Below, piece by piece: positions 3,832 to 55,028 of a stretch of 64,000 bases of DNA. Source of the stretch: Candidatus Latescibacterota bacterium (GTDB lineage Bacteria; Latescibacterota; UBA2968); assembly GCA_965220765.1 (NCBI GenBank), contig OZ244847.1, forward strand, positions 320,646-384,645. The letters are read 5' to 3'. The position numbers and the translations under genes were made by a program. A model generated the notes under the pieces. It had not been told where the DNA came from and did no database searches. It saw nothing but the letters and a program-made list of their open reading frames with translations. The first letter of the stretch is position 1; each line of letters begins with the position of its first letter.

Positions 3832-4854
3832 TCACTTCAAAAACCCCTGAACCCGCGGGTGATCGAGCACATCAGTATTCAGCACATCTCTGGGCGTGCG
3901 ACCCTCAAGCGCGTCAATAATTTGTTCTACGCAGCACTCGTCAAGCCGAATAGCGGACTCAACGGTAATACCCGCGTTGTGATTGGTACAGATAATGCGG
4001 GGGTGATCTTCGTGAATCGCACGCGTCTGATTGACGGGATCATCGACCATATAATAATAGAGCCGCTCTTCTTTAATCGCCCGGTTCACCGCCTCATCAT
4101 CCACCAGATTGCCGCGCGAGGGATTGATCACTGAAGCGTGGGGTTTCATCGCGCAGAGCAAATCGTAAGTCACAACCGTATCATCGCCTGAAAGATGGAG
4201 AGAAATCGCATCGCATTCCTCAAAAAGAACGCGGGGATCATCGACCACCTCGGCATCGTATTGCGCGGCGACCTCGTCAATATCCGGACGGATATCATAG
4301 ACGAGCAAACGTCCCGAATCCCCCAGAAGCGGACGCGCGCGCTCCGCCATAGCCTGACCGATCCGTCCCAGCCCCCAGATCCCCAGCGTAGAACCTTCCG
4401 CGTCATAAGTCCTGATAATCTCAAAATTCCCCGCATGGCTATTTCGGTTCAACGTATAAACGCGCTTCAGCGCGGCCATCCACTGCGCGATCGCAAATTC
4501 GGCAACCGTAACCATATGCACAGGGGCAACCGTGACGATAACACCGCAATCAGTCGCGCGCGGCACATCGACCTTTTCAAACCCGACCCCCCAGCGCGCA
4601 ACAATGCGCAAATCGCGCGCCGTGGCGTAAAACTCGGGCGAGAACACAACCGAATCCGCCAGAACACCCACCACACCCTCGGCGTGTTCGGCACCAAATT
4701 CGGACTCAGAGTAAAACGCCACCTCGGCGTAATCGCGCAACCTATCAATCGCCTTTGTCCGCTCCTCAGATGCGAACTCGGGACCCTGCAATTTATCTGT
4801 AATGAGAATTTTTTGAGCCATAATTTTGCCTTTAAAAAATGAGTTGCTATCCAA
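3832..4854 (-). CDS. D-isomer-specific 2-hydroxyacid dehydrogenase (NAD-binding)
   Basis: GIWGLGRIGQAMAERA Rossmann GxGxxG motif; overall fold-family resemblance. Confidence 0.75.
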   Translation of the reverse strand: MDSNSFFKGKIMAQKILITDKLQGPEFASEERTKAIDRLRDYAEVAFYSESEFGAEHAEGVVGVLADSVVFSPEFYATARDLRIVARWGVGFEKVDVPRATDCGVIVTVAPVHMVTVAEFAIAQWMAALKRVYTLNRNSHAGNFEIIRTYDAEGSTLGIWGLGRIGQAMAERARPLLGDSGRLLVYDIRPDIDEVAAQYDAEVVDDPRVLFEECDAISLHLSGDDTVVTYDLLCAMKPHASVINPSRGNLVDDEAVNRAIKEERLYYYMVDDPVNQTRAIHEDHPRIICTNHNAGITVESAIRLDECCVEQIIDALEGRTPRDVLNTDVLDHPRVQGFLK

Positions 4855-5740
4855 TCAGCGGCAACAAAGTATCAGCAGTCTTCTTCACCAGAAAAGTGTA
4901 AAACTCCTCACTCAACAGACTGCTCCCGTGATCCTGAATAAATTTTAGCTCCTCGGGCGTAATATCAACGGGATTGGTCTCAACCGCATTGGGGTATTCA
5001 TTCGCAGGCGTCCGATCAATCGGCGCGACAAACTCCACCGTCAGCGCGTCATCATACCCCACCTCTTTGAGCGTCGCCACCAATTTTCCCCAATCCCAGT
5101 TCCCCAGCCCACACGCCATGCGATTATTATCCGCCACGTGAAAATCCACGAGCCGGTCACCGGCGTCTCGGATAGCTTGATACGGATCCGCCTCTTCGAT
5201 ATTGATATGAAAAGCATCTAAACACACGCCGCAATTCGCACCCGTCGCCTCTGCCAGAGCAAGTGCCTGAGCACCCCGGGTAATAAAATACGTCTCAAAC
5301 CGATTGATGGGTTCAATAGCGAGGCGAACTCCCTCACTTTCGGAATGATCGTAAACCTCCTGCATGCCCGCCACAGCCCATTGCCATTCCTCATCGGGCG
5401 TGGCATCCGGTTCGATTTTCCCCACAGTAGCCGGCACCACAGTCAGCTCATACCCATCGAGTTCTTTGACCATCGTAACACAATCCTTGACGTATTGCAC
5501 GGATTGTGCCCGAATCCCCACATCTTTGGCCAGCATATTGCGGTCGCCCATCATCAACGTCACCGCTCCCCAGCAGCGGATATTGTATTTACCGAGCAAA
5601 GCACGCACCTCTGACGTATCATACCGCTCGGGTTCACCACTCAGTTCAATACTCTCGTACCCAAATTTTGCCAACCTCTCAAGCGTGACTTCGAGAGACT
5701 CCGACCGCATCCAATTGTGCATAGATAAATGCATCATCAA
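4847..5740 (-). CDS. sugar phosphate isomerase/epimerase (xylose-isomerase-like TIM barrel)
   Basis: Family resemblance (FGYESIELSG..., metal-binding E/D/H pattern); overlaps neighbours by 4-8 nt, indicating an operon. Confidence 0.65.
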   Translation of the reverse strand: MMMHLSMHNWMRSESLEVTLERLAKFGYESIELSGEPERYDTSEVRALLGKYNIRCWGAVTLMMGDRNMLAKDVGIRAQSVQYVKDCVTMVKELDGYELTVVPATVGKIEPDATPDEEWQWAVAGMQEVYDHSESEGVRLAIEPINRFETYFITRGAQALALAEATGANCGVCLDAFHINIEEADPYQAIRDAGDRLVDFHVADNNRMACGLGNWDWGKLVATLKEVGYDDALTVEFVAPIDRTPANEYPNAVETNPVDITPEELKFIQDHGSSLLSEEFYTFLVKKTADTLLPLIG

Positions 5741-6555
5741 CCTCCCTGAACAATAATATCCGGCGTATTTTCAACGCGCCCCCACCAGAGCGCCAAATCA
5801 AAAGTGGGATCTCCCGTCAGAAAACGCCAGAACTTGATGCGATTCATAAGCTCAATGCGATGGCGTTGCCCGTGCCAGGGAATCTTCTGGTTGAGTGCTT
5901 GTTTAACCTCGGGACTATCGAGATCGTCGGTATTCCACAAACGCTGCTGCCGAACCGTGGGATTGAGGCGCAGCTTAAACATATACCGATCCCTATCCGT
6001 AAAATTGCTCCGCGCCGAATGCCATATATTGGTATGCCAGAAAAACATCGTCCCCGCTTCGCAAACCGCCTGCACCTGTCCTATGATATTTTGATAGCGT
6101 TTGATCTCCGCTTCGTGAACCCGGCGAAACTGCGTGCCCGGCACAAAAAGCGTACCCCCGCTTTCCAGCGGCGTATCTTCTGGAAAAAAGGAAATCTGAA
6201 TATCGAAATGCAAATCGCGAACATCGTATTCGGCATCCTGATGCAAATTGGCACCCTTGCGCGTATTTGCCGGCGTAAGATGCGCCGCGTGGTGATCGTA
6301 TCGCGGATTGGGACCCACCAGACTGTGAATAATCGCTGCCACTTTGGGCAGGCGAAAAACCTTGCCAATAGCTTCATCGGGCCAGGACTCGCTAAAAGGT
6401 GAACCCATCGGAGCGCGGCGCCTCAGCTTGCCCGTACTCATCTCGTCATGGGCAGCTTCGCAGAGTTCGCGCGGCACCAGATTGTCAAAACGCAAAAAAC
6501 CCGTACTTGCAAACTGCGCCATTTCTACAGACGTAAGCAAAAGATTTTTATCCAT
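5737..6555 (-). CDS. phytanoyl-CoA dioxygenase (PhyH) family Fe/2-oxoglutarate oxygenase
   Basis: HQDAEYD (HxD iron-binding motif) and PhyH-like N-terminal region. Confidence 0.6.
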   Translation of the reverse strand: MDKNLLLTSVEMAQFASTGFLRFDNLVPRELCEAAHDEMSTGKLRRRAPMGSPFSESWPDEAIGKVFRLPKVAAIIHSLVGPNPRYDHHAAHLTPANTRKGANLHQDAEYDVRDLHFDIQISFFPEDTPLESGGTLFVPGTQFRRVHEAEIKRYQNIIGQVQAVCEAGTMFFWHTNIWHSARSNFTDRDRYMFKLRLNPTVRQQRLWNTDDLDSPEVKQALNQKIPWHGQRHRIELMNRIKFWRFLTGDPTFDLALWWGRVENTPDIIVQGG

Positions 6556-7449: not shown

Positions 7450-9837
7450 TCACGTTACTGCGCGTTTCCGGTGCAAATTCCAAACACACCACAGAACAAG
7501 CGCGTAAGCCACAGCGGCAATATAAAAATTAATGGATATCCCAAATATAATAGAAACAAACACAGCCAGAGCAGAACACAGCACACCCATAATCCCGTTC
7601 AGTGCCCAGAACCACGGCGTCTCATCTTCATAATGGGACTGAACCAGACGCATACCCGTCGGAAAAAATAGCCCCATGAGCATCCCCACGGGAAAAATGA
7701 CCAGAACAGACATCAGTATTTTTGTCGTTGTATCCTCAGCCATCATATGGGACAGCAAATAGTGGAGTACCGTATTGAGAGCAACAACACTCACCGCCGT
7801 TATAATAGGAAAAACATAAACCCACGGCTTTCGCGTAAGCGGAAGATGATCGCTTACAAAACTGCCCATACCCGTGCTTGCAATAAGTGTAAACAGCAAT
7901 ATACCCAGCGAATAGATGGGATGTCCAGTAAATACGTTGAGCCGTTGAATCAGGGCAATCTCCACAAACATAAAAGCCGAGCCAATCAAAGAAAAATACA
8001 ATGCACCGAACCAGAAACCGCGTGTTTGCATCAACGTTGGGGGTCTATGGGCAAACCACAAAGGCACCCCAATCGTCGCAACAGCGAATACCCCGAGCAC
8101 AATCAAAAGCGCGAGAAGCGTAATCATAGCTCTTAAATTCCCGCTGATAACGCCCTCTTTCACGCTCAGTGCAGTCCCTATGTGATTCAGCTTCAACATA
8201 TTAAAAAAATAGGGATTGTCATCTGTCGGCGGGCTGTAATCGAGTTCGGCATGGGCTATGGCTTCTGCGAGTTGATTTGAGGATTGGGCAGATAAAATTT
8301 GCCTCAAAATGGGTTCAGCAGGCAAACTATCGGGCACATGCACAATCTGATATTGCAACTCCTCGCACACCTGTCTCAACCGGTTAACATCGGACTCACT
8401 CAGCGGCTGCCGGCAAATCAGCAAAGTCGAAATATCGCCAATTGTGATCAGTGCCATGTGATCGGCCGGTCTTTTTACCTTGAGTCGCAAAAGCGATTCA
8501 ACGCCCAAACTCAATACCCGACCGGTTTCCCCAATATGTTCGGCACTATACCACCGCGACACCGCAAAAATACCGTCTTCTGTCAGACGGCCGAGAAATG
8601 TCTGCCAGGCTTCCACAGTATAGAGCGCATTTTCAGACAGTGAAAATGCACCCGCGCCCGTCGCTGCCCAGGTATCGATTAACGCCATCTGAATAACGGA
8701 AAACTGCGTGCGACTTTGCGACAAAAAACTGCGCGCATCATCAACCACAAACGTCACGTCATCCCGATTGGCAAGCCCCGCAAAATCGCGAAACTCATTC
8801 TGAAGCAAATCGACAAAAATCGGATTGACCTCAATACCCAAAACCGCGTCGTGACCAAAAAAGAGCGCACTCTGGATATCTTTCCCTCCGCCCACACCAA
8901 TAATACACGCTTTGCCCCGTCTATTGAGATAATATCCGACATTTGTGATATCATAACGCAGATGTTCAATATCTCTGGGTGAAGCAAAAGATCTAATAGC
9001 CGTACCCGCTGCTCCGTCAATCGTCATCCCGTGAAAAAAAATCTTCTCTCCCTCCGCCACGGGACTACCGCCCCAGAGTTGCGGAGACAAAAATTGCTGG
9101 CGATAGACAACAACGCGCGAAAAGGAATTCCACCGTTCTAAAATCTGGTCGTGAAGTCTTTGAAATCTCTCCTTCACAAACATCGGACGAATGCCATGTG
9201 GGGTCTGGGCATTGAGAATCCCCAACACAAAAAACAGCAACGCGAACGCGATATAACGACGAACAGAGCGAGACTGCACAACACGGGCAAAACATGCACC
9301 AGATAGCGCACCAATACCGCTACACCACAACATCAAACTCGGCGCATCAAGGATCTCGAGACCACCCAGAACAATTAGACAACCAGCAGAAGCACCTGTC
9401 AAATCACTGGCATACAGCCTGCCAATCGGCGCATTGAACCGCGTCAACACAGTCGTGATAACAAGGCCCGCATAATAAAACGGCCAGGCGCAGACCAGAG
9501 TAGCTACAAAAAGCACGATCAGACTCAGAATACTTTTGTAAAAGCCGATAGGCAGAACGCACAAAAGGATCAGAGACGCGGGAATAGACAGCGCAAACCC
9601 GGCACATGCGCGAGTAATCGCTTCGATCTTATTCTCATCGTCAAAGCGCTCTTTTTGTACATAGACCTGGATAGCCCCCGCCGTCATACCCAGCATGGCA
9701 ATAGAAATTGAAAAAAATGCCAGATGGTACCATGTAATAACACTCAGCAGACGCACCAGAACAATCTGGATCGCCAGCGACGCCAAAGCGATTAAAAAAA
9801 GACCCGTATAAGCTGCGATTGAACGTTCGTCTTTCAT
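7450..9837 (-). CDS. spermidine/spermine-synthase-like aminopropyltransferase domain embedded in a polytopic membrane protein
   Basis: N- and C-terminal multi-TM regions; central methyltransferase-fold segment (IIGVGGGKDIQSALFFGHDAVLGIEVNP). Confidence 0.6.
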   Translation of the reverse strand: MKDERSIAAYTGLFLIALASLAIQIVLVRLLSVITWYHLAFFSISIAMLGMTAGAIQVYVQKERFDDENKIEAITRACAGFALSIPASLILLCVLPIGFYKSILSLIVLFVATLVCAWPFYYAGLVITTVLTRFNAPIGRLYASDLTGASAGCLIVLGGLEILDAPSLMLWCSGIGALSGACFARVVQSRSVRRYIAFALLFFVLGILNAQTPHGIRPMFVKERFQRLHDQILERWNSFSRVVVYRQQFLSPQLWGGSPVAEGEKIFFHGMTIDGAAGTAIRSFASPRDIEHLRYDITNVGYYLNRRGKACIIGVGGGKDIQSALFFGHDAVLGIEVNPIFVDLLQNEFRDFAGLANRDDVTFVVDDARSFLSQSRTQFSVIQMALIDTWAATGAGAFSLSENALYTVEAWQTFLGRLTEDGIFAVSRWYSAEHIGETGRVLSLGVESLLRLKVKRPADHMALITIGDISTLLICRQPLSESDVNRLRQVCEELQYQIVHVPDSLPAEPILRQILSAQSSNQLAEAIAHAELDYSPPTDDNPYFFNMLKLNHIGTALSVKEGVISGNLRAMITLLALLIVLGVFAVATIGVPLWFAHRPPTLMQTRGFWFGALYFSLIGSAFMFVEIALIQRLNVFTGHPIYSLGILLFTLIASTGMGSFVSDHLPLTRKPWVYVFPIITAVSVVALNTVLHYLLSHMMAEDTTTKILMSVLVIFPVGMLMGLFFPTGMRLVQSHYEDETPWFWALNGIMGVLCSALAVFVSIIFGISINFYIAAVAYALVLWCVWNLHRKRAVT

Positions 9838-10101
9838 AGGCTTTATCTATACAATATAGGGGTGGTGTCTATCCGTATATCCGTATATCCACCCCGAAGG
9901 TACACCGAATCGGCAAACTCATCAAGCCCAATACATCCACCGCTCGTTTTCGGGAATATCAGGCAAAAAAGAATTGCAAATGTTTGTTAATATCTTATAT
10001 TAGTAAGTACCCACTCATCTTTATAGTGTGGCTGGAAAAAACAGGGGAATTATGAATAAATCTATTTGACTTTGAATTTCTTATTTTGCATACTAAACAG
10101 C

Positions 10102-10133
10102 GAGGGTCGTGTCTCGGCAAAGACACGACCCTC
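10102..10133 (+). promoter_or_regulatory. stable stem-loop in the 5' leader of the dockerin gene
   Basis: 13-bp perfect inverted repeat GAGGGTCGTGTCT / AGACACGACCCTC with 6-nt loop, 31 nt before ATG 10165. Confidence 0.45.
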
Positions 10134-10164
10134 AGAAAAGTATCTCTTTAACGGGAGAGATGAA

Positions 10165-10917
10165 ATGACAATAGGCAAGATAGTCACAAGAGTCAAGGGT
10201 GTTCTGCTGTTTATTACTGCTCTGACGACAAGCATTATTACGCCATTTAATGAGTCCTCGGGCGGTGAATTTGCAGGCATGCGGCTTTATCTCGATACCG
10301 AGGTTGAAACGCCCCCTGTATTGAATAACACATTGACCATTCCCAAAAAGAGACCTGGCAATACGATACAATTTCAACTCTTTGCACCCACGACCGCAGA
10401 CCAGCGAACATACGGCTATGAAATGGAACTTGCCCTGTCCGACGACAAGGCATTTTTCGATCATATCGGGAACATATCGGGAAAGGGTTTTACTGGCGCG
10501 TCTCTGCGCCGAACACCCGGCCATCCCCGCATAGCCGCACTGATTCTTTCTATCCCCACAGTGCCAGAAAACGGCTATCTCGGTCAAATTAACCTGGAGG
10601 TCATCAAACCTCTCGAAGAAGAGACAACTCTTACTGTCAAAACCATTGTGATGGCCGGACTCAGTGGTGAACTCGACTATTTAGATATATCTGAAGCCGC
10701 AATCTCTTTTATCGGTACTTTTGAACCGAGTGATTCCAATGGCGATTTCGATGGCGATTTCGACGTTGACTTTGCCGATTTTCTCGCCTTTGTTGGCGTC
10801 TTTGGATTGTCGATATCAGACACCAATTTCGACGCGCACATGGATGTGAACGGCGATGGTATCATTAATTTTGTGGATTTTCTCGCCTTTGTCGATGCCT
10901 TTGGCAACAACCCGTAG
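10165..10917 (+). CDS. secreted protein with C-terminal type-I-dockerin-like tandem calcium-binding repeats
   Basis: Signal-peptide-like N-terminus (MTIGKIVTRVKGVLLFITALTTS); two dockerin repeats (DSNGDFDGDFDVDFADFLAFVGVFG and DVNGDGIINFVDFLAFVDAFG); RBS GGGAGAG before ATG 10165 (ORF track start 10066 is a distant alternative). Confidence 0.6.
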   Translation: MTIGKIVTRVKGVLLFITALTTSIITPFNESSGGEFAGMRLYLDTEVETPPVLNNTLTIPKKRPGNTIQFQLFAPTTADQRTYGYEMELALSDDKAFFDHIGNISGKGFTGASLRRTPGHPRIAALILSIPTVPENGYLGQINLEVIKPLEEETTLTVKTIVMAGLSGELDYLDISEAAISFIGTFEPSDSNGDFDGDFDVDFADFLAFVGVFGLSISDTNFDAHMDVNGDGIINFVDFLAFVDAFGNNP

Positions 10918-10976: not shown

Positions 10977-11008
10977 AAAAAGCACGCTCTAAATAGAGCG
11001 TGCTTTTT
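10977..11008 (+). terminator. rho-independent terminator after the dockerin gene
   Basis: AAAAA-GCACGCTCT-AAAT-AGAGCGTGC-TTTTT. Confidence 0.7.
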
Positions 11009-11017
11009 CATTCTCCC

Positions 11018-11046
11018 TTGACAGCCTCAATTCGCAGACCTATATA
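11018..11046 (+). promoter_or_regulatory. sigma70-type promoter giving a leaderless transcript for the membrane-protein/glycosyltransferase operon
   Basis: TTGACA (11018-11023), 17-nt spacer, TATATA (11041-11046); ATG at 11052, only 5 nt after the -10 element. Confidence 0.45.
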
Positions 11047-11051
11047 AAGTT

Positions 11052-12998
11052 ATGGCTGAAGTCGCTCGAGAACACGAACAAAAAGACGCCACCGCACGCG
11101 CATTGACCTATAAGTCAATCATACTGGGGTTGGCACTTGTACTGATAGCTGCGCTCGGTGGATTTTATGCACGGCACATCTTGCACACAACGCGGCTGGC
11201 GCAAAATCACCTGTCCCTCGCCGTGGTATTCCCCTTTGCAATAACCGTCGTCTTCTTGCGGCATTATCTCAAACTCCATCGAGGCGAACTTCTGGTCATC
11301 TTTTCAATGGGCCTGATCGCCTCAACCCTGCCAACGTATTTCTTAAGCCGGTTGATTGCCAGCTTTTGCGTACCGTATTACCTCGCCGACCCGACAAATC
11401 GATGGGGTGAATTTACACACGATTACCTGCCATCCTGGGCTGTAATTGAACCCGGTCCGGCACTGACGTGGTTTTTTGAGGGCTTGCCGCGTGGCGCGCC
11501 TGTTCCATGGGAAGTGTGGATCGGACCTCTGTTCTGGTGGTTGAGCCTGCTCGCGGCACTCTGTGCGGTCTTGTTATGCACAGCGGTAATCTTGCGCAAG
11601 CAATGGATCGAATACGAGCGACTCGACTACGCCCTCATGGAATTGCCCCTCGCAATGGTCGAAGAAGGCGATACACCGTCCCGCCTGCCGCCATTCATGC
11701 GCTCGCCGCTCTTCTGGATTGGTTTTTCCTTTTCGATCTTCGGCATACTATGGAACATCGTATCCTATTTTAATCCCACATTTCCCGTATTCCCCTGGCG
11801 ATTTGAAGCCATATCCTTTGGACGAGATTTTCAGGCAATTCGCATGAACCTCTACTGGCCCATTGTGGGATTTGCCTACTTTATCAACTTAGACGTCTCG
11901 TTTAGCATCTGCTTTTTCTACTTCCTCGCGGTCATCGAAGAGGGATTATTTAACCGATTTGGCGTCATAATTTCAGAAGCGAACTTTTGCGGCACCTCCT
12001 TTGTGCCCGTAGGCTGGCAAATGATCGGCGTGTGGTTTACCGTCGTCGGCTGGGGGCTTTGGATTGCGCGGTCGCATTTGCGCGATGTCTTTCGCAAAGC
12101 ATTCAAAGGCGATGCAAAAATCGATGACTCGGACGAATTGCTCTCTTATCGAAGTGCTGTCTTCGGCCTATTGGGCGGGCTGCTTTACATGGCCTGCTGG
12201 TTTTACGCTTCGGGCATGGGCCTGTGGGTCATCGCGGTATTTCTCATCGTCATGATGGTCGTCTATATCGGAATCTCGCGCATTATTGCCGAAACCGGCG
12301 TCATCACCATCCGCGCGGTCATGGTACCGCAAACATTTATCATGTTCACATTTGGCACCACGCGGCTATCTGCACAAACCATGGTCGCACTCGGCATGTC
12401 ATTTGGCTGGTGTGGCGACATGAAAACAACGCTCATGCCCGCATTGACCCACTCCGTCCGCTTATTTGACACCATTCAACATCACAAACGGCAACTCGCC
12501 TGGGCCATATGTCTGGCAATGGGCGTGGGCATTGTCGCATCCTGTTTGTATATCATATCCATGGGGTATGAAGGTGGTGCGGGCAATTACGGATCGCAAA
12601 TCTCCGGAGGCCTGGCGCGCGGACCCTGGGATTTCGTGGTTAAATACGCAAGAGATCCCGTCAATCCCGACTGGCGCAAAATGGCCTTCTTCACCAGCGG
12701 CATCGCCTTTGCTGCTCTGTTGTACTTTTTACGCTATCGCTACACCTGGTGGCCTCTGCATCCACTGGGGCTGGCAACCGGGCCTGCGTATCCCGTAACC
12801 CATGTCATTTTTCCAATATTTCTCGGCTGGCTGAGCAAACTCGCGATCTTGCGTTTTGGCGGCAGCAGAACCTATCGCAGTGCCCGCCCCTTCTTCCTCG
12901 GACTGATCATGGGATACTACGTGGGTGCGGGCATCTCGTTCTTCGTCGATATGATCTGGTTTTACGGACAGGGCCACGGCGTCCCATTTTCCGATTGA
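11052..12998 (+). CDS. large polytopic membrane protein of unknown function (paralog 1)
   Basis: 648 aa, 12 or more hydrophobic segments; clear paralogy with 14928..16949 (e.g. LVIFSMGLIASTLPTYF vs LVIFSMGLVASALPSYF; FFEGLP..PWE.WI; ILRKQW.E.ERL). Confidence 0.65.
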   Translation: MAEVAREHEQKDATARALTYKSIILGLALVLIAALGGFYARHILHTTRLAQNHLSLAVVFPFAITVVFLRHYLKLHRGELLVIFSMGLIASTLPTYFLSRLIASFCVPYYLADPTNRWGEFTHDYLPSWAVIEPGPALTWFFEGLPRGAPVPWEVWIGPLFWWLSLLAALCAVLLCTAVILRKQWIEYERLDYALMELPLAMVEEGDTPSRLPPFMRSPLFWIGFSFSIFGILWNIVSYFNPTFPVFPWRFEAISFGRDFQAIRMNLYWPIVGFAYFINLDVSFSICFFYFLAVIEEGLFNRFGVIISEANFCGTSFVPVGWQMIGVWFTVVGWGLWIARSHLRDVFRKAFKGDAKIDDSDELLSYRSAVFGLLGGLLYMACWFYASGMGLWVIAVFLIVMMVVYIGISRIIAETGVITIRAVMVPQTFIMFTFGTTRLSAQTMVALGMSFGWCGDMKTTLMPALTHSVRLFDTIQHHKRQLAWAICLAMGVGIVASCLYIISMGYEGGAGNYGSQISGGLARGPWDFVVKYARDPVNPDWRKMAFFTSGIAFAALLYFLRYRYTWWPLHPLGLATGPAYPVTHVIFPIFLGWLSKLAILRFGGSRTYRSARPFFLGLIMGYYVGAGISFFVDMIWFYGQGHGVPFSD

Positions 12999-13023
12999 TT
13001 TAAGACCTGTATTGCTTTTGATT

Positions 13024-13058
13024 TTCATCCTGTTCATCCTTTCATCCTGCACATCCTG
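13024..13058 (+). repeat. four imperfect tandem copies of (T)TCATCCT(G) in the 70-nt spacer before the glycosyltransferase gene
   Basis: tcatcctg / tcatcct / tcatcctg / catcctg with an 8-10 nt period. Confidence 0.5.
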
Positions 13059-13067
13059 ATCTGAGCT

Positions 13068-14894
13068 ATGAAAAAAAATAACGAGATAGATCGGATCTCG
13101 CACTATTTTCCCTATATTGTGGGCGGCACTGCGATTGTAATCCGGTTTTTTTATCTCTGGTCATTCTGGGCCAATCACCCGTTCTCGCAGAAACTGATCT
13201 CAGACGCACGGATATTCGACGACTGGGCGCTGCGCATCGCCTCGGGGGACTGGCTCGGCACGGCTGAAGTCTTCATTCTACCCCCCCTGTATCCATACCT
13301 CCTGGGAATCGTCTATACGATCTTTGGACACGCGCCCAAATTGATAATAGGCTTACAAGCCGCCGCCGGATGTGCCAGTGCGATACTGGTCTATCGATTG
13401 GGCGCGCGGCATTTTGGCGCTTATGCGGGATTATTTGCGGGATTGTTATTCGCGAGCTATGGTCCCCAACTATTTTACGAAGGCATGCTACTGGGCACAT
13501 CGGGTGCCGTATTCCTCAGCCTGCTGGGCTTGACGCTAATCTCGGAAAAAAATAAAACCCACTGGCACCTGGGACTGGCCGGATTGATTTTTGGACTGGC
13601 CGCACTCATGCGCCCCAATATCTTATCCGCAATCCCATTTTTGCTATTCGGCGCGTGGTGGGCCTACCACAAAGCAACACCGGCAAAACGTTCAATACGG
13701 CTGGCGAGTTACTTTCTATGGGGACTCATCCTCCCACTCCTCCTGTGCGGACTGCGCAATGGCCTGGTCGCAGACGACTGGGTACTGATGACCGCGCACG
13801 GCGGCATCAACTTTTACATGGGCAATCACCCCGATGCGCCGGGCTGGTTTTCCGCACCTCCAGGAGTGGATGCACAGATCACCCCGGAAGGGGCACAGGG
13901 TAATTTGGAAGAACCGCGCCGCGTGGCCGAAAGTGCTCTGGGACGATCTCTGAAAGCATCTGAAGTCTCTTCCTTCTGGTTTAATAAGGGCCTCGCATTC
14001 TGGATAGACGATCCAATAGGCGCGATAGCCGTAACCTTGCGAAAAGTGCGCCTATTTGCATCGGGATACGAAATCCCGCTCAATTACAATTTTTATTACC
14101 AGAAAAAATTTTCTGCCCTCTTGCGCTTTCCAATCACAGAATTGTGGATATTATTTCCCCTATCCATTGTGGGACTCATCGTCGCAGCCCGGCAATTTGA
14201 TCGCCACGCCATCCTGTATCTGTGGCTCATTGGATATGCGGCAGGGGTATTGGCTTTTCACGTATCATCGCGCTATCGCATGCCCGCAATCCCCATCCTC
14301 ATGATATTTGCAGGCATGGGAATATGGACATTGATATCCTGTGTACAATCGCAAAAGTGGAAAAACCTGTGCATCAGCGCAGTGGCGCTGATCATCCTGT
14401 GGACCGGCTACCGCATAGAACTAAACGCACAACTCGCCCAAAACAACTGGGCGATGGATCCCTTTAATTTGGGCACGGCTTATTTGTGGTCCAACGAAAA
14501 TGAACCGGCGCGATTATATCTCGAAGAGGCAGAAAAATACGGACAGGGTGATGCCGTCTTGTATTACAATTTGGGATTGGCTTATGCACGTACCCAAAAA
14601 ATGGACGCCGCCAAAAACGCGTATCAACAGGCACTATCCCGAGATCCCAACCTGGTACGCGTCTATGTCAACCTCGGCAACATCCTGTTTCACGAAGAAA
14701 AATTTCACGAAGCGATAAATAACTATCGAGAAGCATTGAAACGAGATCCCAATACCCACAATGCGCGTGCGAACATGGGCTGGGCATATTGGTCTTTGGG
14801 AAGAATAGACGAAGCGCGCAGCGCCTGGCAGCAGGTCTTGCAAACAGCACCCGATCACCCCTCGGCAAAAGCTGGGATGGCGCGCACGCGTTAA
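13068..14894 (+). CDS. GT-C fold glycosyltransferase (GT39/ArnT/PMT-like) with C-terminal TPR repeats
   Basis: N-terminal multi-TM region resembling PMT/ArnT-family transferases; C-terminal TPR units (YYNLGLAYARTQKMDAAKNAYQQAL..., VYVNLGNILFHEEKFHEAINNYREAL...). Confidence 0.6.
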   Translation: MKKNNEIDRISHYFPYIVGGTAIVIRFFYLWSFWANHPFSQKLISDARIFDDWALRIASGDWLGTAEVFILPPLYPYLLGIVYTIFGHAPKLIIGLQAAAGCASAILVYRLGARHFGAYAGLFAGLLFASYGPQLFYEGMLLGTSGAVFLSLLGLTLISEKNKTHWHLGLAGLIFGLAALMRPNILSAIPFLLFGAWWAYHKATPAKRSIRLASYFLWGLILPLLLCGLRNGLVADDWVLMTAHGGINFYMGNHPDAPGWFSAPPGVDAQITPEGAQGNLEEPRRVAESALGRSLKASEVSSFWFNKGLAFWIDDPIGAIAVTLRKVRLFASGYEIPLNYNFYYQKKFSALLRFPITELWILFPLSIVGLIVAARQFDRHAILYLWLIGYAAGVLAFHVSSRYRMPAIPILMIFAGMGIWTLISCVQSQKWKNLCISAVALIILWTGYRIELNAQLAQNNWAMDPFNLGTAYLWSNENEPARLYLEEAEKYGQGDAVLYYNLGLAYARTQKMDAAKNAYQQALSRDPNLVRVYVNLGNILFHEEKFHEAINNYREALKRDPNTHNARANMGWAYWSLGRIDEARSAWQQVLQTAPDHPSAKAGMARTR

Positions 14895-14927
14895 ATTAAA
14901 TAGACACCTGATATTGCCATACGTATA

Positions 14928-16949
14928 TTGGCTCGATTCATCATCCGCGCTATCCGCGTAATCCCCGTAATCCGCGATCCGATTCGGAGTCCCTCAATGG
15001 CCATTCGCGAAACCCAAACACAGACAGCACCACTTCAACGAGCCGTAACCGCGCGGTCCATTGTGATAGGTGCCCTGTGCGCGGGTTTCCTGGGATGGGG
15101 TGGACATTTTACGCGACACATTGCACACACGACAAAAATGGCGCAGGATCACTTGCCGTGGGGCGCAGTCGTGCCATTTTTGTTGATCGCGGTCGTATTG
15201 AATAAAGTACTGGAAAAAGTGCGCCCGCAATGGGTCTTGCGCCCTTCGGAATTGCTGGTCATCTTCAGCATGGGTCTGGTCGCATCGGCATTGCCCAGCT
15301 ATTTCATGGGACATTTGATCGCCAACGTCTCAGCGCCATTTTATTTTGCCAACACAGAGAACCGATGGGCAGATGACATACATCCTTATTTGCCCGACTG
15401 GGCGGTTGTAACCGATGTGACGGCTGCGCGGTGGTTCTTTGAGGGACTGCCAGCAGGTGCAACCATCCCCTGGGAAATCTGGATAACGCCGATGATCTGG
15501 CGATTGAGCCTGGTATTTATGATCGGCGTATTTGGATTCTGCGCGGTTTCAATCCTGCGCAAACAATGGGTGGAACACGAGCGCCTGACATTTCCATTGA
15601 TGACATTGCCACTGGAACTCGTCAACAGAGAACCGCGCGGATTCTGGCCCGTGGGCATAATGAATCGCCCCGTATTCTGGTGGGGATTCGCGCTGGCCTC
15701 ATTTCCCATATACTGGAACATGGTTGGATATTTCCAGCCGCTTTTTCCAACCATTCCCCGAGACCTGGGATTGATGGAATTCGGTCAGTATTTCCCGCCG
15801 ATTCATACGCGGTTTTACCCCGTAATCATTGGCGTATCGTATTTTATGGACCTGGATGTATTGCTCAGCATCATCGTCTTTCACCTGTTACTCACCCTTG
15901 AAATGGGGCTGTTCAACCGCCTGGGAATCGAAATAGGACCAACCCATGTGTGGCCGGCATCGCAATTTGAAAACTGGCAGGGTTTTGGTGCGCTGTGCGT
16001 ACTGGTGCCGTGGAGCTTGTGGATGGCGCGAGAACATTTGAGAAATGTATTTCGCAAAGCCGTGCTCAATGCGCGGGAGGTTGAAGACTCGGACGAATTA
16101 TTGTCCTACCGCACAGCACTCGGCGGATTGCTGGCGAGCGGACTATTTATTCTCGGCTGGTGTGTGGCGTCGGGCATGTCGGTCTTTGTCGCCCTGACCT
16201 TCTTGAGTCTTGTGGGCATAATCTGGCTGGGCATCACGCGCGTCTGCGTGGAAGGCGGCATGATCAGCAGCCGCATGATACAGGGACAATTTGTCGCCTA
16301 TCACCTGCTCGGTCCCGTGAATATTTCGCCATCGGGAATGGCGGCATTTGCGCTTACTGAAACATGGCACCACGATATAAAAACCATATTGATGGCGAAC
16401 CTGGCCAATGCCACGCGGCTTTACGACAGCATACGGCACGAAAGAATACGCCTGGTCATTGCCCTGGGACTGGCCATGCTGGTGGTGATAACCACAAGTG
16501 CATATTATCAAATATCATCGAGTTATGTAACCGGCGCATTTAATTACGGCGGCATTTACGGTCCCTATGTGCAAAACACTTTTGATACCATAGCCGGTCA
16601 TATTCGGGACCCCTTTGCCCTGAAGCGCGAGCGCATGCTCATCGCGCTCATTGGAATGGCAACCACGGCACTGATGCTGGCCCTGCGCTATGTATGGCCC
16701 TGGTGGCCCTTGCATCCGATCGGGTTTGCTGCCGTAACAGCCTATCCGGTCAATCGCATTGTATTTTCGATCTTCTTTGCATGGTTTTCCAAATTTATCA
16801 TATTGCGGGCGGGTGGCATTGATCTGTACCGCAAAGCATCGCCGTTTTTCCTGGGACTTATGGTGGGGTATTTCACGGGCGTATTTGTGTCATTTCTGGT
16901 AGATTGTATATGGTTCCCTGGGCAGGGACATTCACTGGCGTTGTATTAG
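14928..16949 (+). CDS. large polytopic membrane protein of unknown function (paralog 2)
   Basis: 673 aa from TTG 14928; alternative ATG at 14997 preceded by GGAG; paralogous to 11052..12998 along its full length. Confidence 0.65.
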   Translation: MARFIIRAIRVIPVIRDPIRSPSMAIRETQTQTAPLQRAVTARSIVIGALCAGFLGWGGHFTRHIAHTTKMAQDHLPWGAVVPFLLIAVVLNKVLEKVRPQWVLRPSELLVIFSMGLVASALPSYFMGHLIANVSAPFYFANTENRWADDIHPYLPDWAVVTDVTAARWFFEGLPAGATIPWEIWITPMIWRLSLVFMIGVFGFCAVSILRKQWVEHERLTFPLMTLPLELVNREPRGFWPVGIMNRPVFWWGFALASFPIYWNMVGYFQPLFPTIPRDLGLMEFGQYFPPIHTRFYPVIIGVSYFMDLDVLLSIIVFHLLLTLEMGLFNRLGIEIGPTHVWPASQFENWQGFGALCVLVPWSLWMAREHLRNVFRKAVLNAREVEDSDELLSYRTALGGLLASGLFILGWCVASGMSVFVALTFLSLVGIIWLGITRVCVEGGMISSRMIQGQFVAYHLLGPVNISPSGMAAFALTETWHHDIKTILMANLANATRLYDSIRHERIRLVIALGLAMLVVITTSAYYQISSSYVTGAFNYGGIYGPYVQNTFDTIAGHIRDPFALKRERMLIALIGMATTALMLALRYVWPWWPLHPIGFAAVTAYPVNRIVFSIFFAWFSKFIILRAGGIDLYRKASPFFLGLMVGYFTGVFVSFLVDCIWFPGQGHSLALY

Positions 16950-16959
16950 AGGCTATGCC

Positions 16960-19539
16960 ATGTCTAACGGCAAAAGAAAAATTCTCTCCATTCGCGAACC
17001 CATCCTTATCGCCTTCATTCTCTTGACATGTGCGCCAGCCTGGGGAGACAGCCTGCAGGAAAGTTTCGATGTACGGGCAGATTCCCTCGCTGCGGTTCTG
17101 ATCGCAGAACGCGCCGGACCAGACAGCGCAGCCATCTATCGGGCATTGAATCGGGAAGAGAAAGCACAATTTTTGCTGGACTTCTGGCAACGACAAAATC
17201 CCGTAGTACTGCAATTTTATTACGAGTATCACATCGGGCGTCGCTACCTGACGGTATCAGACGCTTTTTTTGAACGCGGGCGATTGATACCCCAGCGCTA
17301 TAAAACGCGCGCCGCACCACCAGATCCCGCCCTGCTCGACGACGCTGTTGCACTATTTGAACGAATACTACGGGACGATGGCGAAAACCGAATTGCCCTG
17401 TGCGCGCTGGGATATTGTCTGTTAGAACAGCACAAAGGCCTGGAAGCAGAACGCATTTTTGTGCGCGTACTGGAAAAAGATCGGCGGTTTCTCATCGCGC
17501 GACACGGCCGGGCACTGGCGTGCTTGATCCAGAAAAAACAGGTGCGCCGGGCACTGGACCTTTTTCAGGATACCGTCTCTCTCGATTCGAAATACGAAGC
17601 GGCGTATTACAATTTAGCAATGTGCCACCTGGCAATGCGCAGCGTGGATATGGACCATCATTTTAGCAATGTGGTCAAACGCTTCCCGCAACATCGCGAT
17701 GCGTATTTTAAGCTGGGGGTGTTTTACGAATCGCTCTATTATTTTGAAAAAGCCGTCAAGGCATTGTCAAAACAGGTCGCTGTAAATCCAGCGCACAGCG
17801 TGGCACGGGGCAGGTTAGCGCGCGTGGCTATGGAATTGAAGTATTTGAAACAAGAATTGCACACCACCACAGAATTGCGCGATCTCGCCCAAAAAGACCC
17901 CGAGCGTTATCTGCCGCTTTTGGGCGCACAATATCTGGAATCGGGTGCGTACGAACAAGCAGAAGCGTCATTTTCGCAATTTTTATCCATCCTGCCGCAA
18001 AATGAACGCGACCTGTACGAAGATGTCACCCTGATCCTGTCTGCAAAAGAATTTGAGACCTTTCGCATGATCGGAGGAGAGGAAAAACGCGCATTTACCA
18101 ACTTGTTCTGGCGCAAAATAGACCCAACACCCACCACACTGGTTAACGAGCGCAGGTTGGAACACTACCGGCGCGTCAATTACGCGATACAGAACTTTTC
18201 CGAAGGCCGAATACCCTGGGATGCGCGCGGCGATGTATATATCCGATTTGGTCATCCCGATCACAGAAGCTGGTCCGATCACCTCGTATTCGAAACCAAT
18301 GCAAAAGTGATTCGGGTAAAAAACCGACTCATGGACCTCGCGGGACAAGCACTGCACGAAATCGTTCCCACGACATCGCTACAGATAGAATCGTCTTTGG
18401 GCGCAAGCACGGTAATGAAGGCGACACCCGAGGTTCGGGGACTGCCGATATTTCCCATGCCGCACCAGGGGGCAGTATTTCGAGATGGCGCGTCTTTGAA
18501 CTACAAGTGGGAAACCTGGATTTACGCCCATATTGGCGAGGGATTTGAAGTGACATTCCTCGATGCCCTGGGCAATTTCAATTTTCAATTTCCCCAGCCG
18601 CCTGTTGACTCGCCCAATCGATTGCTGTGGCAACACCTCGCACCCGAAGCCGTGGTCGCACGGGTCGTCAACCGCACGCCCTCTGTTTACCACTATCCAT
18701 ATCCCGGAGACCCAATGCCGCTGCTTATGTCGGTCGCAGATTTCCGGGGAAATGGACGCGATACGCGCCTGGATGCTTTTATCGGCATTCCCTGGGCTGC
18801 ACTGAAAACGCAAAAACGGGGAACACAGATATCGGCTTCGGTGAATCGAATGTGGGTCCTCTATGACGCACAGGGAACAGAAATTGCCCGCGACAGCCTG
18901 AACACGCGAGCAACACAGCCCGAAACCGTTGACGACCCCGGCGTTTTATGGGTGGATCAGATCACAACAGAAGTTAAACCCGGCCACTATCTCATGGCTG
19001 TACGAGTGTCCGACCCTGCCTCAGGGAAACTACAAATCCGCCGACAACTCGTCGATATAGAAGCATATAACGCCCCGACCCTGATGGTAAGCGACCTTGT
19101 CGTGGCGGGAAAAATTGCAACAATAGAAGCCCGTGCAGAAGGCAAATTCATCCGAGACGAACTCGAAGTGCTCCCCCTGCCATCACACACCTTTGCCCCA
19201 GAACAGCCAGTCTATCTGTACTATAAAGTGTACAACCTCTTCCGAGATGACACAGGACAAACGCATTACCGCGTGGATTATGCTGTACGCGGCAGCAAAA
19301 ATGCCGGCGCCCGGGTGCTAAAAGGCATCGGCACATTGCTGGGCATATCTGAAAGGCAAGAAGGGGTACAGGTATCTTATGAACATCGGGGCAACACGGA
19401 AACAGAACCCGTATATGTTGCCCTCAATGTAGCGGCAAAACCGGGACAAAAACTCACGATAGGCGTAACCGTAACCGACCTGAACCGCCCGGGGAAACCA
19501 ACAGCGACAAAAGATGTTTGGGTAGCAATAGGAAAATAA
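16960..19539 (+). CDS. secreted TPR-repeat protein with GWxTD-type domain
   Basis: Signal peptide (ILIAFILLTCAPAWG); TPR-like repeats; region FTNLFWRKIDPTPTTLVNERRLEHYRRVNYAIQNF..GRIPWDARGDVYIRFGHPD matches the GWxTD domain pattern as remembered. Confidence 0.55.
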   Translation: MSNGKRKILSIREPILIAFILLTCAPAWGDSLQESFDVRADSLAAVLIAERAGPDSAAIYRALNREEKAQFLLDFWQRQNPVVLQFYYEYHIGRRYLTVSDAFFERGRLIPQRYKTRAAPPDPALLDDAVALFERILRDDGENRIALCALGYCLLEQHKGLEAERIFVRVLEKDRRFLIARHGRALACLIQKKQVRRALDLFQDTVSLDSKYEAAYYNLAMCHLAMRSVDMDHHFSNVVKRFPQHRDAYFKLGVFYESLYYFEKAVKALSKQVAVNPAHSVARGRLARVAMELKYLKQELHTTTELRDLAQKDPERYLPLLGAQYLESGAYEQAEASFSQFLSILPQNERDLYEDVTLILSAKEFETFRMIGGEEKRAFTNLFWRKIDPTPTTLVNERRLEHYRRVNYAIQNFSEGRIPWDARGDVYIRFGHPDHRSWSDHLVFETNAKVIRVKNRLMDLAGQALHEIVPTTSLQIESSLGASTVMKATPEVRGLPIFPMPHQGAVFRDGASLNYKWETWIYAHIGEGFEVTFLDALGNFNFQFPQPPVDSPNRLLWQHLAPEAVVARVVNRTPSVYHYPYPGDPMPLLMSVADFRGNGRDTRLDAFIGIPWAALKTQKRGTQISASVNRMWVLYDAQGTEIARDSLNTRATQPETVDDPGVLWVDQITTEVKPGHYLMAVRVSDPASGKLQIRRQLVDIEAYNAPTLMVSDLVVAGKIATIEARAEGKFIRDELEVLPLPSHTFAPEQPVYLYYKVYNLFRDDTGQTHYRVDYAVRGSKNAGARVLKGIGTLLGISERQEGVQVSYEHRGNTETEPVYVALNVAAKPGQKLTIGVTVTDLNRPGKPTATKDVWVAIGK

Positions 19540-19547
19540 GGCAGCGA

Positions 19548-20765
19548 TCAACGGCTCAAATCCAAACAAACCATCTCACTGTGGTTTCGAAGATAAAGCC
19601 TGCCATTCGCCAGCGTGGGTGGCGTCCAGCAACGGGGCGACAAAACCTGAGCACTGGCTTTTTCTATGTACGCTTCAGGTGTAGCTTCTACCAGAGCCAG
19701 CTTACCCTGTTCGCCCAGGACGATCAAATACCCGTCCGCAAAGATGAGTGACCCCTTTTGAAAGCCGCGTTTGCGCCATTGCTCCTGCCCGGTATCCGCG
19801 GCAATGCACTTGAGAATGGCGTTGTCAAAGCCATAGAGGTACCCTTCGTGACGTATGGAAGAGGCAAAGTGATTTCTCATACCGCGATTGAACCATACTT
19901 TTTTTACCGAAAACTGACCATTCTGGGAAATAAGCTGAATAACCGTCGCGCCTTTGCCATACCCCGAAGAGATAAAAAGTCTATCCGGAGCGAGAAAAAC
20001 AGGCGTAGCGGCATTGACATCGGGGCCCGTTTGCCAGGGATATCGCCACAGAAATCGGCCATCTCTGGCAGCGACACCAACCAGGCCAGAGGCTGGAAAA
20101 AAGACAATTTGCCGAACATCAGACACAGTAATAGCAATGGGTGAAGCATAAGAAGGCGCGTCATCTTGAGATGCCCATGCGACATTGCCGGTGGTTTTAT
20201 CAAAGGCAATAAAAGAGTTTCCAGAGGAACCCCCAACCTCTACAATCAGCAAGTCACCTTCTATCAAAGGGGAAGTAGAAAAGCCCCAGTGAGGGGGATC
20301 ACTTATGTATTCAGTCTGTAAATGGTGAGACCATACCGTTTCGCCGTCCTCAACATTGAGTGCATAAAGTTGTCCGTTTGCTCCCAAAAAGAAGGCCCGT
20401 TCTTTGTCAATTATGGGTGTCGATCTGGGACCATTCCCCCCCTGCCAGTCCGAAAAATTGCTTCCCGTCTTAACGCGCCAGCGCTCTTCCCCTGTAGCAG
20501 CATCCAGACATACCGCGTACTCATCTGTGCCTTCAGCAAACATAGTATAAGCTGCGCCCCGTGCAACGGCAATGCTCGAAAAACCCTCGCCCAGCGGGAT
20601 TCGCCAGAGAACAGCGGGCCCGGAATCAGGCCAGTTTTTGAGCACGCCTGTCTCAGAGGAAATCCCATCGCGATTGGGACCAAACCACTGCGGCCAATCG
20701 GCAGCAAAGCCACTGCCCGTCAGGAAGAGCGAGGCAATTGATAAAGTGATCATGAGGATGTGCAT
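19548..20765 (-). CDS. PQQ-like beta-propeller repeat protein (BamB-like), secreted
   Basis: Signal peptide from internal Met (MHILMITLSIASLFLTGSGFAADWPQWFGPNRDG), ATG complement at 20763-20765; repeated WRxxxG propeller motifs; ORF track start 20801 is GTG. Confidence 0.6.
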   Translation of the reverse strand: MHILMITLSIASLFLTGSGFAADWPQWFGPNRDGISSETGVLKNWPDSGPAVLWRIPLGEGFSSIAVARGAAYTMFAEGTDEYAVCLDAATGEERWRVKTGSNFSDWQGGNGPRSTPIIDKERAFFLGANGQLYALNVEDGETVWSHHLQTEYISDPPHWGFSTSPLIEGDLLIVEVGGSSGNSFIAFDKTTGNVAWASQDDAPSYASPIAITVSDVRQIVFFPASGLVGVAARDGRFLWRYPWQTGPDVNAATPVFLAPDRLFISSGYGKGATVIQLISQNGQFSVKKVWFNRGMRNHFASSIRHEGYLYGFDNAILKCIAADTGQEQWRKRGFQKGSLIFADGYLIVLGEQGKLALVEATPEAYIEKASAQVLSPRCWTPPTLANGRLYLRNHSEMVCLDLSR

Positions 20766-21051
20766 GGAAACGCCTCCGCGTAAGAATCTATTTACAGGCA
20801 CAGCAAAGCGATAACGGGCCTGCCATTAATCTATGATTACTTCTTACCACTAACACTCTGTAAAACAACATCTTTCCAAACACTCTGTCAAGGGCTATGC
20901 GCGATTTTTGTTTTATATTTCTGGCAAATGTTAGTAAAAAATATTCTTGCAAGACTTTCTATAACTGCATAACATGGCACGCTCGTCCTCAACGCATTTG
21001 TGTCGTGTGGTGCTGCGTGCCATTCTTTAGTATGCCATTGGAAACCCTGCT

Positions 21052-21978: not shown

Positions 21979-22004
21979 AACCCGTGCGAACATGGAGGTG
22001 TCAC

Positions 22005-36479: not shown

Positions 36480-36493
36480 TTCGCCCTCCTCTT

Positions 36494-37639: not shown

Positions 37640-37642
37640 TTT

Positions 37643-52409: not shown

Positions 52410-52422
52410 AGAAATAAACCTG

Positions 52423-54114: not shown

Positions 54115-54167
54115 AAATTCAGTCTTTCTACACAGAGAATAATAAAGGAAGGGATTGCAAAAACAAA

Positions 54168-54497
54168 TCAGGAGTCGATAAGACCGACCTTTTGAAATGC
54201 GAGGTGTAGTTCAAGACGGAGTTGGGTATAAGAGACACCGCAGGCGTGGTCTCCTATAGAGATAAGCATGAGACAGCGAGGATGACCTGAAGGTATTAGT
54301 TCGGAACATATTGCACGTACTTGCCGGCGGATGCGATTGCGCCGAACTGCGTTCCCAAATTTTTTTCGAATTGAAATGAGCGTTAGATCCATCTCGGAAG
54401 TACCAACCTGAACATGAACCCAACGCCCACGAAAGATCTGGCCGTGCTGTCGAATTTTCGCTATTTCGCGTCGAATGCGTAGGTTAGGTGTTCCCAT
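54168..54497 (-). CDS. rnpA: ribonuclease P protein component RnpA
   Basis: Basic 109-aa protein with RNR motif (AVRRNRIRRQVR); positioned between rpmH and yidC. Confidence 0.75.
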   Translation of the reverse strand: MGTPNLRIRREIAKIRQHGQIFRGRWVHVQVGTSEMDLTLISIRKKFGNAVRRNRIRRQVRAICSELIPSGHPRCLMLISIGDHACGVSYTQLRLELHLAFQKVGLIDS

Positions 54498-54511
54498 AAC
54501 ACACCTACATA

Positions 54512-55019: not shown

Positions 55020-55028
55020 CCCCCCCCC
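55020..55028 (+). repeat. C9 homopolymer tract about 150 nt upstream of dnaA
   Basis: tttcCCCCCCCCCtcaattg. Confidence 0.6.

Follow-up and report, generated by a model that had tools for sequence, protein, structure and literature searches.

The closest described relatives of the membrane proteins considered in this paper are the plant and fungal oligopeptide carriers of the OPT/Yellow Stripe-like (YSL) family (Transporter Classification 2.A.67), whose structural representative, barley HvYS1, is a proton-driven symporter with a proposed elevator mechanism and dimerises through its scaffold domain (PMC9691689). Here we describe a cluster of four genes in a 64,000-nucleotide stretch of contig OZ244847.1 from a Candidatus Latescibacterota bacterium (the whole stretch is called the window below, and coordinates count from its first letter), in which two paralogous membrane proteins flank a glycosyltransferase and are followed by a secreted protein with a GWxTD domain. 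The membrane proteins share the fold of HvYS1 at only 12% sequence identity (PDB 7wsr/7wst), without a PF03169 or PDB sequence match, and belong to a bacterial family that is limited to a few lineages and catalogued only as DUF6785+DUF6784. To our knowledge, the GT-C/TPR, GWxTD, TonB receptor and FtsX-M28 partners described below are not known for OPT proteins. The four genes are as follows.

11052..12998, + strand: gene 1, DUF6785+DUF6784 membrane protein of 648 aa, predicted to be a complete OPT/YSL-fold secondary transporter
13068..14894, + strand: gene 2, GT-C glycosyltransferase (Pfam PMT_2) with C-terminal TPR, 608 aa
14997..16949, + strand (most likely start): gene 3, second DUF6785+DUF6784 OPT-fold transporter, paralog of gene 1, 650 aa
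16960..19539, + strand: gene 4, secreted TPR and GWxTD protein, 859 aa, with two terminal beta-sandwich domains

We are highly confident that genes 1 and 3 encode OPT-fold transporters, and favour, with moderate confidence, the view that these act as inner-membrane importers of a lineage-specific trans-envelope uptake cluster. The two proteins are 43% identical over 650 aa (E 7e-176), in agreement with an initial annotation of the locus that had called them paralogs. Each carries DUF6785 followed by DUF6784 far above the Pfam gathering cut-offs of 25 and 26.4 bits, with scores of 369.5 bits (E 3e-110) and 83.3 bits (E 1.5e-23) for gene 1, and 357 bits (E 1.6e-106) and 81.6 bits (E 5e-23) for gene 3. 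No NCBIfam model matched either protein, and no PDB sequence was matched whether we searched with a single sequence or with a 50-sequence profile. The only informative search for this pair was the one by fold, which recovered both the core and the scaffold domains of a YS-type protein. Since the fold of each protein covers a complete HvYS1-like carrier, each is predicted to be a whole transporter, and not one of the flippase or transporter halves that the annotation had suggested; the same comparison matched neither protein to a flippase, MOP/Wzx, RND, exporter or O-antigen-ligase fold. The check on fold that the annotation had proposed thus identifies OPT/YSL-fold transport proteins of an uncharacterised family, and a literature search returned no paper on DUF6785 or DUF6784.

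The wider family gives these proteins their biological setting. A profile search of 1.84 billion cluster representatives (50% identity) returned 7,275 members at E ≤ 1e-3 (2,541 of them at E ≤ 1e-30), and a scan of species-representative genomes located at least 586 loci, often several per genome, nearly all in metagenome-assembled genomes (MAGs) of Latescibacterota, Gemmatimonadota and Planctomycetota, plus one Handelsmanbacteria MAG. DUF6785+DUF6784 is a lineage-restricted family, strongly expanded in Latescibacterota, Gemmatimonadota and some Planctomycetota. Loci of 97-98% identity likewise place the source of the window in Latescibacterota, and nearly identical contigs are present in TARA samples. 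To survey its neighbourhoods, open reading frames (ORFs) were called in 91 loci and clustered and the recurrent clusters annotated; 74 of these loci are not close relatives of the window. More than half of the distant loci (43 of 74) contain sugar-acid or sulfated-glycan catabolic families, counted as MR_MLE, GFO/IDH/MocA, 2-hydroxyacid dehydrogenase, zinc alcohol dehydrogenase (Zn-ADH), PhyH, sulfatase, HpcH aldolase and RGL11-like lyase. Likewise, the full-length, single-copy proteins closest to gene 1 (68-71% identity) are encoded among genes for GH2, GH43, GFO/IDH/MocA, aldo-keto reductase, lactonase, ADH and DHDPS. In 29 of the 74 loci there are at least two OPT-like genes, and in 14 of the 74 two such genes point the same way and are either neighbours or have one gene between them. 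This context marks out a family of nutrient permeases with many specificities, and the TonB-dependent receptors, SBP_bac_5 proteins, sugar-acid enzymes and sulfatases within it point to uptake and catabolism. A module of DUF6785, a TPR protein, an FG-GAP/ASPIC (UnbV) protein and a rhamnogalacturonan-lyase-11-like protein also recurs (L054, L080, L089, L039, L047 and L081 in our numbering of loci), and because of this recurrence we regard TPR proteins as a general companion of the transporter family.

One of the closest described parallels to this arrangement is the Bacteroidota polysaccharide utilization locus (PUL). The host lineage is placed in the FCB (Fibrobacteres-Chlorobi-Bacteroidetes) superphylum and is rich in sulfatases (PMC4454575). 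As in a PUL, the relatives' cluster has a receptor of SusC/RagA type (CarboxypepD_reg + Plug), a protein of cell-surface type and an inner-membrane transporter of its own, with catabolic enzymes nearby, and in nine of the 74 distant loci a block of SusC-like TonB-dependent receptor, 740-800-aa uncharacterised protein and PorV/PorQ-family barrel lies directly upstream of DUF6785. The likeness is nevertheless partial. The receptor of the relatives is SusC-like (TIGR04056, partial match) but SusD was not found beside it, a 705-790-aa protein and the PorV/PorQ-family barrel standing in its place; the permease has an OPT and not an MFS fold; the GWxTD-TPR and GT-C/TPR proteins have no PUL counterpart; and the window cluster itself lacks the receptor block. 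The barrel (NF033709, 129-177 bits), which directly follows the 705-790-aa protein and is followed in turn by GWxTD genes, recalls the PorV/PorQ outer-membrane barrels and their anchored partners (PorQ-PorZ) in the type IX secretion system (T9SS). Unlike in that system, however, PorV/PorQ genes are absent from the window, the similarity of the tail is sub-threshold and no other T9SS genes occur in the clusters.

The uncharacterised secreted protein of 705-800 aa was always found between the SusC-like receptor and the PorV/PorQ barrel (L092:4595-6712, L093:6571-8727, L079:5249-7555 and relatives). Its C-terminus weakly resembles a PorZ/T9SS sorting tail (E 2.5e-4 and 0.077, below threshold), and together with the barrel it may form a PorQ-PorZ-like surface anchor pair that replaces SusD.

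The second line of evidence concerns the neighbourhood of the four genes. Look-ups of gene 1 and gene 3 homologs had suggested that the four-gene synteny is confined to near-identical relatives, a conclusion that was overturned by a reciprocal test in which metagenome contigs were scanned with an alignment of gene 2 orthologs and the flanks then searched. Where the gene 2 ortholog is 43-68% identical, seven of the eight informative metagenome loci have a GWxTD-TPR gene immediately upstream, and four of the seven informative loci a DUF6785 gene immediately downstream, the closest of these being 69-75% identical to gene 3. The trio of GWxTD, GT-C/TPR and DUF6785 recurs across this range, and the neighbourhood conservation that the initial annotation had proposed to examine is borne out. 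Directly after the GT-C/TPR gene, L095, L096 and L138 carry gene 3 orthologs of 69-76% identity. Orthologs of all four genes are found on one strand of a single contig from a different genome, JAYODI010000087.1, which removes the objection, raised in the annotation itself, that the genes might be syntenic in no relative. The order there is PhyH, gene 1 ortholog (67%), a 1,151-aa GWxTD-TPR protein, gene 2 ortholog, gene 3 ortholog (76%), SusC-like receptor, 705-aa protein, PorV/PorQ-family barrel (166 bits), SBP_bac_5, which is an oligopeptide-type binding protein, and gene 4 ortholog (56%). Parts of the same series recur in L098 (long GWxTD, GT-C, DUF6785, receptor, 705-aa protein) and L093 (long GWxTD, receptor, uncharacterised protein, PorV-like barrel, gene 4-like GWxTD), and AP_endonuc_2, UxuA, GNAT, PhyH and 2-hydroxyacid-dehydrogenase genes are neighbours of the extended cluster. 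The window cluster is a reduced and rearranged form of this larger conserved trans-envelope cluster, because its GWxTD gene follows the permease instead of preceding the GT-C gene and the receptor block is missing.

It could be argued that the four genes are not functionally coupled, and that a plastic region has simply brought together a pair of nutrient permeases, an envelope glycosyltransferase with a housekeeping task and a GWxTD protein. The distance between genes 1 and 2 in close relatives ranges from 13 nt to 5 kb, and the spacer can hold either opposite-strand genes or a terminator and a separate gene 2 promoter. Promoter-like sites precede genes 1 and 3 in the window, gene 3-like homologs of 61-79% identity occur without a GT-C neighbour, and a gene 1 homolog of 76% identity occurs without genes 2-4. 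Gene 1 is indeed loosely attached to the cluster, because its spacer to gene 2 varies and several relatives have the terminator together with gene 2's own promoter. Set against chance co-location, however, are the adjacency of GWxTD, GT-C/TPR and DUF6785, which persists to about 43% identity and through changes in gene order, and the four co-directional orthologs on one contig of a different genome. Such persistence is not expected without selection on the neighbourhood, and we therefore consider uncoupled co-location very unlikely. The four genes form a real, conserved neighbourhood and not a chance run.

Gene 2 is where the annotation's central proposal, an uncharacterised lipid-linked glycosylation or export machine, has to be weighed. 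Its description of a GT-C glycosyltransferase with a TPR tail was accurate: the protein matches PMT_2 at 36.6 bits (cut-off 26.1) over residues 72-212, as expected of a PMT_2-type GT-C protein, and has three to four TPRs (TPR_1/2/8) at residues 498-606. In six close relatives, a hydropathy scan gave 6-9 hydrophobic segments for each ortholog. Two features are invariant in 22 orthologs, Asp46 (SDA motif), just past the first hydrophobic segment, and the motif HGGINFYMGNH (244-254), and because of this invariance the enzyme looks active. No alignable structure relates Asp46 to the catalytic Asp of solved GT-C enzymes; in searches for the closest solved GT-C, the full-length profile retrieved only TPR proteins, and neither the GT domain alone nor a 9-sequence GT-only profile retrieved anything meaningful. 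The PMT_2+TPR architecture is widespread across many phyla. In its polytopic N-terminal PMT_2 region, conserved acidic residue in the putative first loop and non-cytoplasmic TPR domain, gene 2 resembles bacterial PMT_2/ArnT-like GT39/GT83 enzymes with TPRs, from which it differs in having no sequence similarity to solved GT-C proteins and in a linkage to GWxTD and OPT-fold genes that is specific to its clade. The architecture also recalls TMTC1-4, the eukaryotic GT-C/TPR O-mannosyltransferases. Gene 2 probably encodes an active glycosyltransferase dependent on a polyprenyl-phosphate sugar; that it modifies a periplasmic or surface component is our guess.

GT-C enzymes need a flipped lipid-linked donor, as in ArnT/GtrC-type systems, and it is conceivable that the DUF6785 proteins flip a polyprenyl-phosphate sugar or export a glycoconjugate, while the GT-C protein glycosylates a target presented by the TPR/GWxTD protein. 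Like GtrA/GtrB/GtrC and ArnC/ArnE-F/ArnT, the cluster places a GT-C gene beside membrane proteins that could in principle supply such a donor. The conserved neighbourhood, the GT-C enzyme and the transport family of the annotation's proposal all stand, and the proposal gains from the GT-C/TPR gene being directly followed by a gene 3-clade DUF6785 across 43-75% identity despite rearranged gene order, as well as from Asp46 and the long invariant periplasmic motif, which suggest an active enzyme. It is the glycosylation or export role that fares badly. Lipid-linked glycosylation systems need a polyprenyl-phosphate-sugar synthase, and no GT2 enzyme of this kind is present in any variant of the cluster, in the window or extended. 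In three-component GT-C systems, the known donor flippases (GtrA, ArnE/F) are small proteins with four transmembrane segments, unlike the 650-aa carriers seen here, which have a solute-symporter fold and no match to a known flippase, exporter or ligase. Most members of the family have no GT-C gene nearby and lie among catabolic genes, the genes around the cluster are of catabolic or uptake type, and at 33 loci of GT-C homologs with 34% identity or less not one had a DUF6785 or a GWxTD neighbour. On balance we think a glycosylation or export machine quite unlikely.

The last member of the cluster was also correctly described as a TPR/GWxTD protein ending the operon. In addition to its TPRs, gene 4 matches TIGR04514 (GWxTD) at 63.7 bits against a cut-off of 28 over residues 352-437, and Pfam PF20094 at only 21.6 bits, under its cut-off of 26.9. 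The C-terminus folds as two beta-sandwich domains (model pLDDT 87.9) with generic Ig-like matches only.

These comparisons enabled us to propose a model for the cluster in which genes 1 and 3, as complete secondary transporters, would most likely work, by analogy with HvYS1, as proton-coupled, elevator-type importers at the inner membrane. The permeases would act as dimers, and the two paralogs might form homodimers or heterodimers, the latter being possible because HvYS1 is dimeric and OPT-like genes are often paired. In this model the cluster would take up an organic oligomer or a sugar-derived compound, with the receptor (where there is one) working at the outer membrane, SBP_bac_5 and GWxTD-TPR proteins serving for binding and scaffolding in the periplasm, and GT-C/TPR and GWxTD-TPR proteins as periplasmic accessories.

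Several observations weigh against this model. The Pfam OPT profile (PF03169) matched neither protein even at E ≤ 10, and because the fold fits OPT/YSL but this profile test fails, we do not call them members of PF03169 and treat them as a distant, uncharacterised, OPT-carrier-like branch. The predicted direction and coupling of transport draw on a fold analogy with one eukaryotic structure, HvYS1, to which the known properties of proton-coupled uptake of peptides or metal chelates and of assembly into dimers belong. The window cluster has no TonB receptor, PorV-like barrel or SBP_bac_5, it is not obvious what a glycosyltransferase would do in an uptake route, and the gene 3-like homologs that lack a GT-C neighbour count on the same side. 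Structural comparison of the GWxTD domain gave no informative match, and a literature search returned no paper on GWxTD. Finally, in 14 of the 74 distant loci, from four phyla, a giant membrane protein of 1,520-1,750 aa with FtsX and Peptidase_M28 domains adjoins DUF6785 (L025, L032, L034, L036, L039, L041, L045, L048, L049, L053, L076, L077, L087 and L088; for example L032:3676-8262 and L032:11915-13897), and a 2,120-aa protein of the representative library, P0434, joins an FtsX/MacB_PCD region (~975-1301) to a full DUF6785-DUF6784 (1483-2110). The apparent fusion may be either a Rosetta-stone link or an artefact of gene calling; together with the FtsX/M28 association it is a hint that the family may do more than import solutes.

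The FtsX+M28 loci raise the question of whether DUF6785 might be a scaffold, or an energiser using the proton-motive force (pmf), for large periplasm-facing machines, with GT-C/TPR as the partner here and FtsX/MacB-type and M28 proteins elsewhere. Most of these loci also encode a second OPT-like protein, polytopic and 660 aa long, which matches nothing in Pfam and is distantly homologous to DUF6785 (hhalign probability 88.6%, E 2.7e-6). The stop and start codons of the FtsX+M28 and DUF6785 genes often overlap, no ABC ATPase was recognised in the FtsX+M28 clusters, and in L076 and L077 two DUF6785 (OPT-like) genes bracket the giant protein, mirroring the layout in the window, where two such genes also bracket one large membrane protein. 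All of these points, and the P0434 fusion if genuine, would suit a scaffold or energiser. Nevertheless, no OPT-fold protein is known to act in this way, P0434 may be artefactual, many family members are single genes within catabolic operons, and a membrane-anchored M28 peptidase fits substrate processing beside an importer equally well. Taken together, this makes a scaffold or energiser improbable.

A broader proposal would join the transport fold and the large partners, making DUF6785/DUF6784 the inner-membrane core of unrecognised modular trans-envelope systems in Latescibacterota, Gemmatimonadota and Planctomycetota. Here, paired, heterodimeric OPT-fold subunits would be physically coupled to large periplasm-facing partners (GT-C/TPR and GWxTD-TPR in the window, FtsX/MacB-type and M28 giants elsewhere) and would do more than plain import, for example pmf-powered periplasmic work or the coupled modification and translocation of a glycoconjugate. 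We consider this unlikely, and continue to prefer import across the inner membrane as part of an uptake cluster.

If that preferred reading is true, OPT-fold carriers would be major inner-membrane nutrient importers of uncultured, sulfatase-rich marine degraders, paired with TonB-dependent receptors in a PUL-like design without SusD; the inner-membrane step of glycan and organic-matter uptake is poorly understood in such organisms. DUF6785, DUF6784 and GWxTD each gain a fold assignment or a reproducible genomic context, and bacterial, well-folded relatives of the plant Yellow-Stripe transporters become available for structural and mechanistic work. The GT-C/TPR linkage and the FtsX-M28 association are two unexplained couplings in which new envelope biology might be sought. 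No established view is overturned by these results, and the proposed mechanism is inferential. For the Gtr and Arn systems in particular, the differences extend beyond the missing GT2 synthase to the 650-aa OPT-fold carriers and the catabolic and uptake surroundings described above.

The layout and surroundings of the cluster add the following features.

3832..6555, - strand: catabolic trio of 2-hydroxyacid dehydrogenase, AP_endonuc_2 sugar isomerase-type TIM barrel and PhyH dioxygenase
10066..10917, + strand: dockerin-like secreted ORF upstream of the cluster, a separate unit outside it
11018..11046, + strand: promoter-like TTGACA-17 nt-TATATA, read by eye from the sequence, putative function
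13024..13058, + strand: four tandem 9-nt units, TTCATCCTG-like, in the spacer between genes 1 and 2
14901..14929, + strand: promoter-like TAGACA-17-TATATT before gene 3, the same sequence in L003, L026, L028, L029 and L030
14943..14978, + strand: ATCCGCGNN, a 9-nt unit in four tandem copies within the 5' region of gene 3; relatives differ in the number of copies
19548..20801, - strand: PQQ_2 (BamB-like) beta-propeller gene, convergent (PQQ_2 E 2.3e-44)

In their longest form, the four ORFs of the cluster (11052-12998, 13068-14894, 14928-16949 and 16960-19539, all on the + strand) encode 648 aa from an ATG, 608 aa, 673 aa from a TTG, and 859 aa, and are co-directional as first annotated. With gene 3 counted from the TTG at 14928 the intergenic gaps are 69, 33 and 10 nt; the annotation had the last two right and gave the first as 70. 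Because the orthologs of gene 3 are 650 aa long and a conserved promoter-like site occupies 14901-14929, its start is most likely the ATG at 14997, which gives 650 aa and a second gap of 102 nt. The promoter-like site of gene 1 ends 5 nt ahead of the ATG, so the transcript of this gene may be leaderless. This site was omitted by the consensus scan, since the last base of its -10 hexamer deviates. The scan for promoters and terminators found no terminator within the three intergenic gaps; its counts were near the shuffled expectation, and the consensus used may not be the promoter type of this lineage. The TTCATCCTG-like units are partly kept in L030 only, the spacer of the other close relatives being different and containing a terminator and promoter. 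Tandem 9-nt units are present in both of the longer spacers, with a copy number of 0-4 among near-identical relatives, and the CAUCCU (mRNA sense) within them resembles the anti-Shine-Dalgarno sequence. Scanning the full window against Rfam, in case a riboswitch pointed to the substrate, gave no match.

Upstream of the cluster, the adjacent secreted protein that had been annotated as dockerin-bearing is present at the expected position and has two DxDGD-type, calcium-loop-like repeats in its translation, but its Dockerin_1 score of 20.7 bits is under the cut-off of 22.9. It is found in L026 and L029 and missing from L003, L028 and L030. On account of the low score, the perfect hairpin terminator at 10977-11008 between it and gene 1, and its absence from several relatives that are nearly identical, it forms a unit of its own and is dispensable. 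The hairpin is bidirectional (GCACGCTC-TAAATA-GAGCGTGC, with A and T runs on its flanks). A 795-aa protein encoded at 7450-9837 on the - strand, with no Pfam or NCBIfam match, lies divergently upstream of gene 1 in all close relatives (91-93% identity). The catabolic trio is kept upstream of gene 1 in relatives, and genes of all three families lie beside the cluster in L003, L026, L028 and L030; PhyH immediately precedes the gene 1 ortholog in L138 and the long GWxTD gene in L096. On the other side, the PQQ_2 gene neighbours the cluster in the close relatives L003, L005, L026 and L028.

No TonB-dependent receptor was found in the 64-kb window, either by tblastn with the relatives' receptor, which returned nothing, or among 28 ORFs compared with Pfam. 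Four sulfatase genes are present (34249-35706, 41376-42671, 57826-59196 and 62343-63701, with 35703-38515 also listed), accompanied by PhyH, MR_MLE dehydratase and gluconolactonase genes. This sulfatase, PhyH, MR_MLE and lactonase content is typical of a degrader of sulfated polysaccharides and is like that of DUF6785 neighbours elsewhere. The genes mnmE, yidC and dnaA lie together at 51063-56564, and from this grouping we take the window to include the chromosomal replication-origin region. Just downstream of the cluster, an alpha/beta-hydrolase gene (21052-21978) precedes a type I polyketide synthase of 3,359 aa (21984-32063, + strand; KS-AT-DH-MT-ER-KR-ACP and a second KS), over which the GC content is 0.62 compared with about 0.50 around it.

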